64,000 nt of DNA. Origin: Plasmodiophora brassicae. Taxonomy: Eukaryota. Location of the stretch: contig CP145410.1 in the NCBI GenBank assembly GCA_036867785.1, positions 1,860,001-1,924,000 of the forward strand, read 5' to 3'. This document shows, piece by piece, positions 36,001-42,000 of this stretch. The position numbers were made by a program. Each line of letters begins with the position of its first letter. The stretch's first letter is position 1.

Positions 36001-39000
36001 CCCGTCGGCAGATCGTCGTGTCCCACCTCAGTCGGATTCGACGTCTGAGGAGACGCTCGTATGGCTGGTTGTGTTGCACCTGGAGCAGCTGGATGTGCGT
36101 CCGGGATTCGCAGAATTCGCCTAACGCTGCCATACAAAGGGTGTAACCGCAGCTACCACCGACGAATATGGATGGTACATACGCTGAAAATGTCGTCTTC
36201 GCGGCGGCTGAAGACGGCACAGATGCCGCTACACGGGATAAGTGTGGAACTATCGCTGGAAAATTACAAAGGGCACACCAACGCCGGAACACCAGTGGAC
36301 CTGAAATCAGTACATGCACATGATGGAATGCCCCCCGAGCAACGAATCCGTGACAAGGAGTTTTTCTGGATGTTTCCGGGGTCCCCACAGTAGACTCCCC
36401 TGAGACAGCATGTGACAACACCAGGACAGAAGTACCACATGGGCCCACCCGTATCCAGCTCACGGACGACGCTCAGATATCGTGATTCCATTTGCTTGTT
36501 TCGTAATACGGATTCGACGTAATCGCTCAAGTGCCAGTCGTGCCGTATCAGACGGGACAAAATTCCAGACGTCTCATCCTCTTGTTGCTTCTGCACTTGC
36601 GCCAGATGTGTTCGGGGGCATTCCGGCATGTGCATGTACTGATTTCAGGTCCATTGGTGTTCCGGCGTTGGCGTGCACTGCAATGTTCCAGCGATAGGTC
36701 CACACTTATCCCGTGTAGCGGTATCTGTGCCGCGTTCAGCCGCCGCGAGGACGACATATTCAGTTTATGTAACATCCATCGTCGGTGGAGGTTGCGGCTG
36801 CACCCTTTGTACGACAGCGTTAGGCGAAATCAGCGAATCCCGGACGCTGCAGCACACCAAGCGCCATTCGTTTCAGATCACGATGATGACGTCTATCACA
36901 AAGTCGTCTACCCTTCGAAGCCAAACACCCTGTATCGGATCCTGTCGGAAGCATTGGCATGCTCGTCTGGCCGTCTGTTGACGCGTGCGCGCTGTTTTCC
37001 AGTGGGTCAATGCCGCAGGGATCGTCTATGTCGCAAGGACCCATTGCCGGAACATCAACGCCCGAGCCTCTAACGCTCAGGCAGCTCGCAAGCTGCGGCG
37101 CAGAGATGCGGCGCGCCGGACACCACTGCACGATTTCGTCGACCATTGCCCATTGCGGTACTCCGCGGCCCGCGGAAAGGGTTGACCGCTGCCGTGGCCA
37201 GTACGGATTATTGCGCGGGACAGCAACGGGGATTCGTCCCCGCTGGAGGAAAACCTGGTATCGTCCCGATTAGTTGGGGTGCGGATGCCTCGCTATACAG
37301 ACAGGCAGCGACGACTGACCGTATAGGTATAAGGGCTTTCCTTGGACGGATATGCTCCCAGGTCGGTTCGCTTTGCGATTCGGATCACATCAGGCGACGC
37401 AAACGCGCCACGTCATCGTTAGAGGCGTCGATTCAGAAGAGAGGCACACCGGGCGTCACTGTGCCAGCCAGTGGTGAACACCCGTTTCTTTCTCGTACTG
37501 ACCTACTGACCTGCAGTCGGTACCGTCCGAGTTATGCGGATCGCTGCCGCTTTACCTGGCTATTGTACGACGGACCGGACGCGGCACAGTACGAACCAGC
37601 GCTATGTGGGCACTGTGCGTCGTGCTGGCCTGGCGGTGATTGCGCCCTCAACCGGACGAAATGGCGTCGTGGCAGGCACCGCATCGGCGGCCCAGCAGCC
37701 CACCACCGATAGCGAAAACTCACCAGGTTGCCTGCGAACCGCCCGCGTCTCAGCCGGGGCGGTCAGCCGCGCCGCCAGGCGCCGGCGCCACCGAATCTCA
37801 CGTCGATTCGGCGGCCTCGGCCCAGACCGGCAACTCGTCCGGCAACACGAAGAAGAAAGCGGTACCGTGTGTGCCAGCGGACAGCCATCGGGCGCTGGCT
37901 GATCCAAGCCATGCAGTCGGGGTTCTCGAACCGTTTGACAGCGATCCGATTGCGCATGAAGGTCCTGCTCGTCGTGGCCGAGGTCATCCTTGCCGTCGCG
38001 CTCACCGTCCAGCTCGTCGCCCTGAACGCCGGCCTGTCGAGCGCCCTCGTCCGTAAGAACGAGGCGTTCGTCAAGCTCATCGCCTTGCAGTACCAGGACG
38101 CGTCCAACAAGATGGTGCATCGGCGCCTTCCAATCGAATCACGCGTCACTGCCGGTAACGCTGACGCTGAGTAGGCACTCGGCTCGAATACCTACAGGAC
38201 GTCGTCGTCGCCGATCTGCGCGGCCATGCTGTCGCCAGGCGCGACCCGGGTGGGGGTGAACGCGTTGACCCTCGAGACCCGCCTCAGGGCACTGGACATT
38301 GCTGTTGTTGTCGACAGCAACGCCGTTATCCAGCTTGCCGGCCATACACACCTGATCGGGACGACCTTCGACCCGTCGACAGAGATCAGCACGTACATCA
38401 ACAGCAGCGCCAAGGGGCAGGTCGGGAGACACTTGCCTCTACTGGGGCAGACAGTGCTGTCGATGCCTGACCAATTGCTCAGCTGAGTTTAACGGTCATG
38501 GCCGACACGACGTTCCTGCAGTCGCTGGGCGTGCCCGAGTACGTCACCAATGGCGACAACGCGCTGCCCGGCTACTCGGTCAACAGCGTCGCGCCCGTGC
38601 GGCTCGTCGTGACGCCCCTGGAGTGCCGGCCAGGGTCTGCACCGACCTCCTTCCTGATCTTCGGTAACAGGACCCAATTGCCGGGTTCACCTACCAGGTG
38701 TTGACCTCTGCGGTGGGCAGGCGACATGATCACCCGAAGGAAGGCGACAATGGTGGCGGAGGGGCCGTCGTCGTCGAAGGACACGTTCTCCGCCATCATC
38801 GGGAAGACCCCGGCGGGTTCCTGGACGACCTTCGCCTCGTACGAGCGCGTGGTCGGGGCGGACCCGCCGACCTACCCCGACTACGACTGGTCGACGTTCG
38901 CCACCGACCTGGACACGGCCCTGCAGGACCCTGGACGGATCCATTCGACGACATCCGTCCGCCTGGGTGCTGACAGCCCTAGCCTAACGCTGCCAAGCAT

Positions 39001-42000
39001 GGAGCTTATGAGTGTACGGCGCTAGGAACGTCGACGTACACGGTTTCGTACATGGCGAGGTCGGCGGCGACAATGGGCGGCCAGCCGTACGACCAGGTCA
39101 GTTCGCCCAGCGTCGTCCTCGTCAACGGGTCGCCGCAATCGCTACAGCAAGATATCATGTCGGGGGCCATCGCCTGGCACGTCCCCGCCGGCATCCTCAT
39201 GATGATCGCCACCGTCGGCGCCACCGTTGCCGTCGGTACGCTGTCGAGCTGGTTGCCATTAAGCCGTTCTCCACTGACTCAGGCACATGTGTCCAGTGAA
39301 GCTGTTCATTGTCCCGGTCGAGGCCCTCATCGAGGCATCCGCCCATAAGCAGTACGCCGCACGAGTGCACACAGTGTCGTCTGACATGGAACGTCCACAG
39401 GTTCAAAAGGTTTAATGAGGGTCTGCGAAAGCTAAAGAAGAACCGGCCGCACATCTACCTGCTGACCGGGATCATCGCCATGACGCAGGGCGTCCTCCTC
39501 GGGCTGGTCTTCATCAACCGGCACATGATCACGAACGCGTTCGCCAACTTCTCGGTGGTGACGTCGCAGGTATGCACCGATGGAGTTGGCGTCCGCCTCC
39601 GGGTTCTAATGGCGTCGACATCAACGTCAGGGCCAATCGATGAACTACATCGTCAACACCAAGCTCGAGCAGATGACGCTGGGCATACAGACGCTGGGGT
39701 TCAATCCCGCTGTCGGGCGAGCGGCGAACAGCACCGATCCGACCGTCGTTGCCACTGTCAACGCGCTGCTGGCCGCCCAGGTATCCCTGAGGAAGATCGA
39801 AGTCGCCGCCCTGGTCGATCTCAGGTCGGTGACACCTTGACGTGGGTCCTTTGCCCATCGTCTGACGCCGTATTGAACAACAGCGGCGTCGTTGTGGCCA
39901 GCGCGTTGCCGGCGACCATCGGAGCGCCATTCGGCGTGAGGCACATCGTCGACTACGTGCGGGACCCGCCCACCAACACCACGTTCGCGTTCATCGATCG
40001 CATCCCGCTGTCGATAATGCGGGCCGTTGCGAATGAGACCGTCTGGCGCGATCCTCTGGCGGGTACAGTCGTTGCACCATCCACCCTGCGATGGTCCCAG
40101 GCGACCCATGGCGTCCTGGTTCGCGTCGTCGTCAGTCCCGTTCTCTACGACGCCACTGGTAACTTCCAATGTGACGTGTACGTCGTACAAATCGTCACTT
40201 AACGGGTGTCGCAGTGCCTTCGAGCCCGGTCTCCTACTTGGTGTTCGTCGATGCGCTGAACGGCAAGGGCGCCGTCATCGAGAACGTCATCAGCACGTTC
40301 ACAGATGGTTACGCGGGTACACACGTCATTCACGTATGGGGGAAATTGGCGTCTCCAGCTGACGTTGTCGCCAGCGATCTACTTCCTGGATCCGAGCACG
40401 CGTACGATGGTGCTGACCACGTCTGCCCTGCAGGTGACGGTGTGTCTCGTATACGACATCCGGCACGACGTCTGACGCAGTGGACAGCATTCCGGATCGG
40501 GACCGATGCTCGCCGATACGGGTATTGATATGGACGTCTTGTACCGGGGCGTGCTCAGCGACCTGAACGGATCGGGGAGCCTTGTGGAGCAAGGCAATAC
40601 GGTCGACGGCGAGGGCATGTCGGTGGCCATCGTCCCGTACCGCAAGTTCCCGCTGGCAACGACGCCCGTTCGCGACACGTCGGATTCGTACACGATGGTG
40701 TACATGGTGCGAGGGCAAGCCGAGGCGTCGTGGCAGCAGCTGCTGGCGACGCAGCTGTCCGTCCAGATTGTGATCATGGCGGTGGAGATGCTCGCCTCGG
40801 TGGCGATCACGCTGCTGGCGTTCGTGCCCCTGCAACGGTTCCTGAGCGCGCTGGACCGCGCGTTCAACGTTCCGTCCATGTCGCAGGAGCGCATGGCGAA
40901 ATACGAGAACAAGGCCATGGAGATGGTCCAGGCGGCTGAATCGGGCACGCGGGACCAATCGGAACCGGCCCGCAGCCACCCGAATACGATACCCGTCATC
41001 AGTCACAACATGACGATAGGCGATACGTCCAACCGAACCACCAGGGTTGATGCCTGGAACGAGGAGCGGTGAGCGCTGGCCGGTGGGCGTCCTGCGGCGT
41101 GCCCTCGATCTGGCCCCGGTTCTCTGTTGTATGAACAAACCCCTTCGGTCTGACCTCGTCCAGTCGTGTATCCATGCAGACGAAGAGGCAGCCGTGTATG
41201 CAGGACCCTGCCTATCTCTTCCGACGAACAGGGGCCGCCGGTCCGGGTACCTTGGAGCGCATGGCGTCGATGTGGGCGGCCGTGTGGAAGTCCCCGGTGG
41301 CCACTACGATGCACGTTGCCGGTTAATAGACGAGTCCGGTGTACCACCAGGTGGAAGTGTCGACGTCAGCGTACCTGAATCGAGGACACGCCATTGGAGT
41401 TTGCGTTCCCGCTGGGCCCAGATCAGGTTCTCCTGCTCCGTCAGGCGCGCCCTGTGGTCAGCGGGAAGCGAATGCCGATTGGCCAGCAGGTACTTGACGG
41501 CGAGGGCGCGCGATGACGCCCAGTCGGTCATCTCCAGAGTGCGCTGCTCCTTGTTGCACCGTCGCAACTCGGTGACGATCTCGTCGAACTCGATCGGGAC
41601 CTTCCGTGTCGGCGCTGTGTCAGCCGCCAGGCCATCGCAATAGAGGTGCGGTCTGACCGCTTTCCCGAGGTCAATCTCGACCAGGTCCAGGGTCCGCTTG
41701 AGGTCGTCCAGGGTTAGATGTCGTGGATCGTCCAAGCTGGCCTTGCTGGCTGTGGCAACTTGTGCCGTCAGACTGTCATGCAATCTGGCATGGACCTGCG
41801 CCGCCATTGTGGCCTTGACAGCCCGCTATCGACGCGAGCAAGTCGGTCTCATATACGTCCAATAGCAACAACGGAATACGGGTCGACTCACACGACGCTT
41901 CTCTGTGAGGTCCCCCAGAGGCCTGGGCACAATGGCTCGCAGGCGCCTGCGGACCACCTCGGGTGTCAGGGGTCTGAAGCGACCCATGAGATCGCCGACC

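Follow-up and report, generated by a model that had tools for sequence, protein, structure and literature searches.

What does a plant-parasitic protist do with a bacterial-type membrane sensor, and how could such a sensor act when no output domain follows it? The question is raised by one gene (37911..41072, + strand) in a 64,000-nucleotide stretch of the Plasmodiophora brassicae genome (assembly GCA_036867785.1, contig CP145410.1, positions 1,860,001 to 1,924,000 of the forward strand). We call this whole stretch the window and count all positions from its first letter. An earlier note, made from the sequence alone, had described the gene as an intron-rich eukaryotic receptor built from two cyanobacterial chemoreceptor-like sensor modules with no output domain. 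We read its product, the 841-residue protein P0001, as a plasma-membrane sensor of tandem Cache-type double-PDC modules, an output-less, covalent and asymmetric pseudo-dimer that acts through a partner; we give this reading a probability of about 0.6. The domain is not of a new kind. What is new is an architecture within a known sensor superfamily: eukaryotic, tandem, output-less and present across lineages of the stramenopile–alveolate–Rhizaria (SAR) group. NCBI already lists the gene, with a generic and imprecise name, ‘CHASE domain-containing protein [Plasmodiophora brassicae]’, and a literature search found no paper describing P0001 or its family.

The coding sequence is fragmented. GC content at the locus is ~0.6, the + strand is full of short open reading frame (ORF) pieces that switch frame, and a Pfam scan of nine raw stop-to-stop pieces gave nothing relevant. 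The splicing pattern comes from contigs of three runs from two studies (X1, X2 and X3). We presume these runs to be RNA, since their contigs carry spliced joints that are lacking in a DNA run, X15, which is near-identical to the window and spans the stretch in one piece with 0 joints. Ten of the 11 introns were seen as joints in the contigs of X1, X2 and X3; these ten (introns 2-11, spanning 38421..40487) are each 49-62 nt long with GT..AG ends, and their removal leaves a single open frame from 38175 to the stop codon. The 12 joined exons translate letter for letter into P0001, which is also 100% identical to the query exon 39882-40157. The contigs cannot rank expression by level or stage. The gene has the following parts.

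37911..41072, + strand, whole coding gene of Plasmodiophora brassicae: 12 exons, ATG at 37911, stop codon at 41070-41072
37911-38114, 38175-38420, 38483-38663, 38721-38966, 39026-39235 and 39297-39351, + strand, exons 1-6
39401-39569, 39631-39824, 39884-40158, 40215-40316, 40375-40433 and 40488-41072, + strand, exons 7-12
38115-38174, + strand, putative intron 1: 60 nt (a multiple of three), GT..AG, in-frame TAG at 38172-38174, no joint seen
38421-38482, 38664-38720, 38967-39025, 39236-39296 and 39352-39400, + strand, introns 2-6, seen as contig joints
39570-39630, 39825-39883, 40159-40214, 40317-40374 and 40434-40487, + strand, introns 7-11, seen as contig joints

The earlier note had thus placed both ends of the gene exactly and was right in calling it intron-rich (11 introns of 49-62 nt); the spliced model that it asked for could be built from the contigs for all introns except the first. 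We accept intron 1, though no spliced joint was seen for it, because its removal takes out the in-frame TAG and links the ATG at 37911 and the first transmembrane helix to the remaining protein, and because the resulting junction between ..NKM and ALGS.. fits the family profile K..QM..G with no gap. A longer version of this intron, 38155-38238 (84 nt), was dropped, since 38115-38174 is the choice that agrees with P0001 and with the family profile.

One X1 contig is unspliced across 38093-38417, which may reflect partial retention of intron 1 or cover by antisense RNA, and one X2 contig ends at 38115. A further joint skips 60 nt (38032-38093) and has ends CT..AC, equal to GT..AG on the minus strand; its depth is 5 in X1 and 2.55 in X3, and its shorter side is only 28 letters long. 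This could mark an intron in RNA transcribed antisense to exon 1, or it may be a quirk of assembly.

How is this chain laid out in the membrane? Hydropathy of the 841-residue product has four peaks, at residues 18-36, 349-367, 401-419 and 741-759, which divide the protein, from four transmembrane (TM) helices and two ectodomains, as follows.

37962..38018, + strand, TM1 (residues 18-36), with a basic N-terminus ahead of it (residues 1-17, four K/R and no D/E)
38019..39192, + strand, ectodomain D1 (residues 37-348, 312 residues), predicted double-PDC (dCache-type), the more degenerate copy
39193..39515, + strand, TM2 (residues 349-367), cytosolic loop (residues 368-400) and TM3 (residues 401-419)
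39516..40766, + strand, ectodomain D2 (residues 420-740, 321 residues), predicted double-PDC (dCache-type), keeping the NGK and GY.A.Y signatures
40767..41069, + strand, TM4 (residues 741-759), conserved juxtamembrane segment (residues 760-799) and disordered tail (residues 800-841)

The loop between TM2 and TM3 comprises 33 residues and is basic, with eight K/R. Basic segments face the cytosol by the positive-inside rule, and because both the N-terminus and this loop are basic, D1 and D2 are placed outside the cell. There are two N-x-S/T sequons in D1 and five in D2. Paired motifs run through the two halves: RALDIAVVVD at 106 and RKIEVAALVD at 491, IGTTF at 129 and IGAPF at 514, VRLVVTPL at 189 and VRVVVSPV at 581, and FLIFGD at 207 and YLVFVD at 601, with offsets of 385-394 residues. 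Each of the four motif patterns given in the earlier note has exactly two matches, one in either half and with the order conserved, so that the TM-ectodomain-TM unit which it had described does occur twice.

The similarity of the two halves is beyond the reach of direct comparison. BLASTP of half 1 against half 2 gave nothing significant (best E 0.028 over 27 residues), and the repeat is therefore old. Profiles built from 14 relatives of each half do align (hhalign probability 100, E 1.1e-44, 297 columns), and this establishes the repeat.

Where do these modules come from? An exhaustive phmmer search against 1.84 billion representative proteins produced 64 hits at E<=1e-3, of which five correspond to ORF calls of exon size from this very locus, 14 are prokaryote-type proteins with two TM helices and the rest have no Pfam domain; the eukaryote-type relatives number ~45. 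Of the 14 prokaryote-type hits (E 3e-8 to 5.5e-4), 13 have a HAMP domain, after which comes either MCPsignal, in many cases together with GAF, or HisKA/HATPase. Ten of them were looked up; four carry an organism name, in each case a cyanobacterium, and two further hits are named ‘twitching motility protein PilJ’ by the Joint Genome Institute (JGI), a label only. Both halves take part, with half 1 matched by the bacterial proteins P0048, P0059 and P0062 and half 2 by P0039, P0043, P0047, P0049, P0054 and P0064. In profile comparison with the cyanobacterial periplasmic domain, D1 reaches E 3.6e-53 and D2 E 4.8e-52, at probability 100 (all profile pairs, including D1 with D2, cover 274-297 columns). 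A search with the periplasmic part of P0059 found 140 relatives; among the best 120 of them, 27 name an organism, and we take all 27 genera to be cyanobacterial. P0059 is itself cyanobacterial, and this result describes abundance in the phylum and not exclusivity.

Motif content agrees with these scores. The motifs that the earlier note gave for cyanobacterial receptors (R.IEYATLV, LIRYTVTPV, GDIVNGK and GYSAVY) are all found in the bacterial consensus from hhalign. D2 has all four family signatures (RKIEVAALV, VRVVVSPV, VDALNGK and GYAAIY), and D1 has only R.IE.A.LV and VR..V.PV, without NGK and GY.A.Y. At 65 positions conserved in at least 85% of the cyanobacterial domains, D2 keeps 36 residues and D1 keeps 27. 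N609, Y626 and Y630 occur in 86-100% of the D2 copies versus 14-43% of the D1 copies; every copy of D1 and of D2 has the Arg of VR..V.P. By sequence, the P0001 sensors are thus assigned to the family that contains the periplasmic sensors of PilJ-type receptors and histidine kinases from cyanobacteria, and the relation to cyanobacterial chemoreceptors proposed in the earlier note was borne out for both halves.

Some of the relatives give weak matches to known Cache families. Scores for dCache_3 are 25.2 bits in P0058 (cut-off 25.7), 22.1 in P0043 and 17.4 in P0047; scores for dCache_1 are 20.9 in P0048 and 16.4 in P0016, all below threshold. PF14827 is precomputed on some of the cyanobacterial relatives. 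NCBIfam has no model over the sensor region in nine proteins, and a word-indexed search for proteins of near length found only P0001 itself.

The eukaryote-type relatives include a second Plasmodiophora paralogue, P0003 (797 residues, 33% identical), which carries the same NCBI name. Other named sources are Spongospora subterranea, Leptophrys vorax (several transcripts), Chromera velia, Pinguiococcus pyrenoidosus, Tribonema and one transcript from MMETSP; the remaining relatives come from metagenomic or Logan contigs. The architecture is thus spread over Rhizaria, stramenopiles and Chromera. The same spacing of four TM helices was observed in at least eight full-length relatives, and TM1 and D1 precede D2 in relatives from six named genera. 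A metagenomic protein of 750 residues, P0019, apparently has the second module only, with TM peaks at 45, 98 and 457 and a ~290-residue tail after the last TM helix. It has no Pfam family match and might represent a family member with one module or with another kind of tail.

The fold was predicted with AlphaFold2 from a 46-sequence alignment. The mean predicted local distance difference test score (pLDDT) is 84.7 and the predicted template-modelling score (pTM) is 0.81; pLDDT falls below 50 only at residues 171-177, 704-707 and 800-841. In the model, a single helix covers residues 2-73, TM1 running on into the stalk, and the secondary structure of each ectodomain fits a long stalk helix that leads into a pair of PAS-like alpha/beta modules, the whole lying between two TM helices. 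Foldseek returned dCache ligand-binding domains at probability 1.00, among them MkcA, LuxQ, vpHK1S-Z8, Tlp3, DctB, CtaA, PctB and KinD, and the nearest ESM Atlas clusters are dCache_1, PDC and CHASE9 at 0.95-0.97. In VIA-align, D1 (model residues 33-339) matched 2p7j (Z 15.8), 3lid (Z 15.4), KinD 4jgp (Z 14.9) and the TlpC dCache domain 5wbf (Z 14.0), and D2 (model residues 419-735) matched DctB 2zbb (Z 16.3, root-mean-square deviation (rmsd) 3.8, 212 residues aligned), 3by9 (Z 16.2), the PscC tandem Cache domain 6mni (Z 14.7) and Tlp3 (Z 13.9-14.0; 4xmq Z 13.9). Taken together, the matches of the two modelled ectodomains to double-PDC sensors of solved structure have Z 13-16 and rmsd 3.5-5.2 over 198-248 aligned residues. 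Both D1 and D2 are accordingly modelled as double-PDC modules of the Cache superfamily, in line with the Cache-like domains named in the earlier note.

Did one sensor duplicate within the eukaryotic family, or in each species anew? A tree was built from 14 D1, 14 D2 and 14 bacterial domains; its branches are long and it has no outgroup. Bacterial and eukaryotic sets separate with a support of 96 in the SH-like approximate likelihood ratio test (SH-aLRT). Across species, D1 copies cluster among themselves and so do D2 copies (3-4 label changes vs ~12 when shuffled), and no protein has its D1 as sister to its own D2. A tree with all D1 as one clade is 20.5 log-likelihood units better than the free quick tree, with a P-value of the approximately unbiased test (p-AU) of 0.834. 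The grouping of D1 and of D2 across species places the duplication before the split of the sampled members from Rhizaria, stramenopiles and Chromera, and the internal duplication proposed earlier agrees with both the profiles and the tree. The Plasmodiophora copies sit on long branches (1.26-2.33). A transfer from a bacterium to a protist, with a cyanobacterial donor, is likely. In the accessible part of an earlier account, Cache domains of eukaryotes are described as few and probably horizontally acquired (PMC4822843).

An output domain was looked for in the protein, in the transcripts and in the relatives. P0001 matches no Pfam family even at E<=10, and hence no output domain; the eukaryote-type relatives, 24 in one scan and six in another, have no recognised output domain by Pfam either. 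MCPsignal is absent from P0001 by Pfam and, among the scanned relatives, occurs only in cyanobacterial ones. Contigs of all three runs pass the stop codon unspliced (X1 to 41147, X2 to 41160 and X3 to 41103), and none of the contigs listed splices onward into an output exon such as a cyclase or kinase. The absence of output, as in the earlier description, was therefore seen on all three sides. Any signal must then pass to another protein.

Only 82 residues follow TM4, and they are modelled as parts of helices at 727-773 and 780-799 ahead of the low-confidence stretch at the C-terminus. Soon after TM2 comes a Pro (..VPVEAL..) that all 13 of the 13 relatives aligned there possess. TM2 and TM4 are each followed by a conserved helix that starts with Pro, and this Pro does not vary in the alignments (27 tails aligned); the juxtamembrane motif F.VPSMSQ is common to P0001, its paralogue and the Spongospora-type relatives. 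These helices sit where the bacterial relatives begin HAMP.

How, then, could such a protein work? Bacterial receptors of this type are homodimers, with two sensor domains on a four-helix membrane bundle. We propose that, prior to the divergence of the eukaryotic members, the HAMP and output parts of an ancestral TM-sensor-TM unit disappeared and the unit underwent a head-to-tail duplication, so that one chain would supply four membrane helices and two sensor domains and would form a covalent, asymmetric pseudo-dimer. A small extracellular ligand would bind a membrane-distal pocket, most likely in D2, and thereby displace the bundle of four membrane helices; another protein, such as a kinase, a cyclase or an ion channel, would read the change through the Pro-led juxtamembrane helices after TM2 and TM4. 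D2 may be the main ligand-binding module, because it keeps the NGK and GY.A.Y signatures and D1 is degenerate. For the two-domain chain of 841 residues, the pTM value indicates a confident placement of the domains and fits the pseudo-dimer, which D1 and D2 probably form within the molecule as modelled. Chains with four-helix bundles, which also fit it, align over residues 1..773 (6z0c, Z 13.1; 6m6z, Z 10.8), values that any helical bundle can give. A complex prediction with the two halves as separate chains, scored at 0.54, fits as well.

Several results weigh against the tandem-sensor reading. P0001 reaches no Pfam Cache model at E<=10, sequence searches of the PDB with P0001 and with its alignment profile gave nothing significant, and Cache membership rests on the predicted fold and on the weak Pfam hits in relatives. 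When half 1 and half 2 were submitted to complex prediction as separate chains, the score was 0.54 against 0.01 for the best control, a result graded as ‘weak support’ and no stronger; three runs agreed in at least 69% of contacts and partner pLDDT was at least 67. Of 78 solved complexes, 51 attain the mark used, as do 2 of 108 mismatched pairs; scores of 0.60 or less include only 5 of the 78 solved complexes and all 4 mismatches that passed, and the pass may reflect memory of solved dCache dimers. The proposal that the post-TM helices are HAMP remnants has no statistical support (hhalign E 0.28 and 0.031, probabilities 0.2% and 1.6%). The tree, with its 14 bacterial domains and no outgroup, cannot show a eukaryotic clade nested in cyanobacteria. 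Finally, intron 1 has no spliced joint in the contigs and the X1 contig crosses it unspliced; were it retained, its TAG would end the frame after TM1, translation would have to begin at a later ATG without TM1 and the four-helix topology would be broken. The last point, along with the hint of antisense RNA over exon 1 that the CT..AC joint provides, is also what an annotation artefact or a decaying gene would predict, whether a foreign N-terminal exon or a pseudogene. We consider such an artefact very improbable: once the ten confirmed introns are spliced out, the other 2.3 kb of coding sequence forms an open frame, relatives in the six genera have TM1 and D1 ahead of D2, the junction of exons 1 and 2 fits the family profile without a gap, and the predicted model is confident from residue 11 onward.

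Two further explanations take the protein to be genuine and dispute what it does. The NCBI name shared by P0001 and P0003 suggests a true CHASE receptor of the AHK4 or DhkA kind that binds cytokinin or a peptide, with which the parasite would read host cytokinin. The CHASE family name stands for a sensor coupled to a cyclase or histidine-kinase output, and P0001 has neither. The AHK4 sensor 3t4j does align to D2 (Z 12.0, rmsd 4.8, 216 residues), but it ranks 30th, behind dCache_1-type sensors (Z 16.3 vs 12.0), and came up in the wide search only, the 50 best matches of the Foldseek-led re-alignment not including it. As AHK4 has the fold of the same superfamily, its match does not discriminate between CHASE and dCache. 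The Pfam CHASE model (PF03924) matches none of 45 scanned proteins (P0001 at E<=10 and 38 + 6 relatives), and the only significant prokaryotic sequence relatives are cyanobacterial chemoreceptor and histidine-kinase sensors with weak dCache_3 or dCache_1 matches; on these two grounds we do not class P0001 as a CHASE member, a placement for which only the NCBI name speaks. The name and the label Cache-like point to the same superfamily, because CHASE is placed as a double-domain member of the Cache clan in the accessible part of PMC4822843. Cytokinin matters in clubroot, according to the excerpt at hand of PMC12559101; yet a survey of eukaryotic histidine kinases, which counts 16 in Plasmodiophora, reports in the portion available CHASE kinases among SAR in Ectocarpus and one diatom, with none there for Plasmodiophora (PMC6324907). 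A cytokinin or peptide receptor of this kind is therefore improbable, though less so than an artefact. The other explanation deserves more weight and is still a minority view: the double-PDC ectodomains would be a structural, adhesive or auxiliary part of some other membrane machine, their ligand binding lost or merely regulatory. It would account for the lack of output, for the degenerate D1 (27 of the 65 conserved positions, no NGK and no GY.A.Y) and for the long branches of the Plasmodiophora copies, and animal alpha2delta proteins with two dCache_1 domains act as channel subunits in the accessible text of PMC9901441. Against it, D2 keeps strong signatures common to cyanobacterial receptors that have signalling outputs, and the TM-proximal Pro-led helices are conserved family-wide, as expected of a transmitting part. 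The tandem sensor acting through a partner remains the reading that we prefer.

That P0001 serves in sensing of the host or environment by Plasmodiophora, for example in zoospores, is our guess. Relatives occur in organisms without zoospores (Leptophrys), so that the distribution does not imply a zoospore-specific role and counts against this part of the preferred reading. On a bolder and rather doubtful view, the family would be an undescribed, SAR-wide class of surface receptors, in which an output-less cyanobacterial sensor in the form of a single-chain pseudo-dimer provides the subunit that reads the ligand for a separate effector protein, such as an ion channel, a cyclase or a kinase; in Phytomyxea (Plasmodiophora and Spongospora) it would read a small molecule of root or soil that guides zoospores or the decision to infect. 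Chemotaxis of Spongospora zoospores is Ca2+-dependent, according to the part of PMC8921600 that was accessible.

The neighbourhood of the gene contains the following recognised genes.

31215-32333, + strand, gene with a Pan3 pseudokinase domain (Pfam)
42530-43938, + strand, gene with PSMD12/CSN4_N and PCI domains, of the proteasome lid Rpn5 type (Pfam)
45778-46380, - strand, gene for ribosomal protein S4/S9 (uS4) (Pfam)
47397-49236, + strand, NMD3 gene (Pfam)

These are housekeeping genes, and none of them suggests a signalling partner or a function. Just upstream of the sensor gene lie near-identical ORF pieces in inverted orientation (34965-35726 on the + strand and 35355-36472 on the - strand), which look like a repeat or a degraded mobile element; the piece at 35355-35822 (- strand) matches no Pfam family. 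Facing the sensor gene at its 3′ end is a convergent open frame of 173 residues at 41304-41825 (- strand), also without a Pfam family. Between the two, the window base at 41206 is absent from the X2 and X15 contigs, a difference of 1 nt.

The perception of the environment by zoospores of the clubroot and powdery-scab agents is poorly understood at the receptor level, and a conserved surface protein with two domains of ligand-binding type offers a concrete candidate for tests and perhaps for blocking. The family also amounts to a natural experiment in signalling biology, in which a bacterial TM sensor was stripped of HAMP and output and fused as a covalent pseudo-dimer, and it raises the question of how a stripped sensor module gets re-wired in eukaryotes. 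In terms of evolution it adds a further case of a eukaryotic Cache-superfamily sensor with cyanobacterial closest relatives, in a family common to plastid-bearing lineages (Chromera, Pinguiococcus and Tribonema) and plastid-less Rhizaria.

How does P0001 compare with systems already known? The closest in sequence are the cyanobacterial PilJ-type methyl-accepting chemotaxis proteins (sensor-HAMP-[GAF]-MCPsignal) and histidine kinases (sensor-HAMP-HisKA-HATPase). They share with it R.IE.A.LV, VR..V.PV, GD..NGK and GY.A.Y, a ~300-residue domain flanked by two TM helices and a Pro after the second of these; P0001 differs in having two copies per chain, in lacking HAMP, GAF, MCPsignal and kinase parts and in residing in an intron-rich protist. 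In predicted structure the nearest are the dCache_1-type sensors (DctB 2zbb/3by9, vpHK1S-Z8 3lid, KinD 4jgo, Tlp3 4xmq, TlpC 5wbf and PscC 6mni), with the same stalk helix and the same distal and proximal PAS-like modules at Z 13-16 over 200-245 residues, whereas sequence identity with the P0001 ectodomains is only 4-14% and P0001 reaches no Pfam dCache model. The CHASE domain of AHK4 (3t4j, Z 12.0) belongs to the same superfamily and has a double-domain fold (PMC4822843, accessible part), but differs by the unmatched Pfam CHASE model, by its lower structural score and by the kinase output that P0001 lacks.

Two systems are closer in the way they may act. The animal alpha2delta and CACHD1 proteins have VWA and VGCC_alpha2 parts, dCache_1 signatures and a single anchor. 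Like P0001 they sit in eukaryotic membranes, contain two double-Cache domains and lack an enzymatic output, and their action is through a partner, as far as the available parts of PMC9901441 and PMC8915833 describe them; P0001 is set apart by its four TM helices, by the absence of VWA and VGCC_alpha2 (no Pfam family is matched) and by a sensor of the cyanobacterial family. The bacterial Cache_heme-HAMP (CHH) receptor likewise combines a Cache sensor and a TM part without an enzymatic output of its own and signals via a bound Ser/Thr kinase, according to the accessible portion of bioRxiv 10.64898/2026.05.25.727664; it is a bacterial homodimer with a complete HAMP and haem. To the extent that these sources describe them, the CHH receptor and alpha2delta are precedents for output-less Cache proteins that act through a bound partner.

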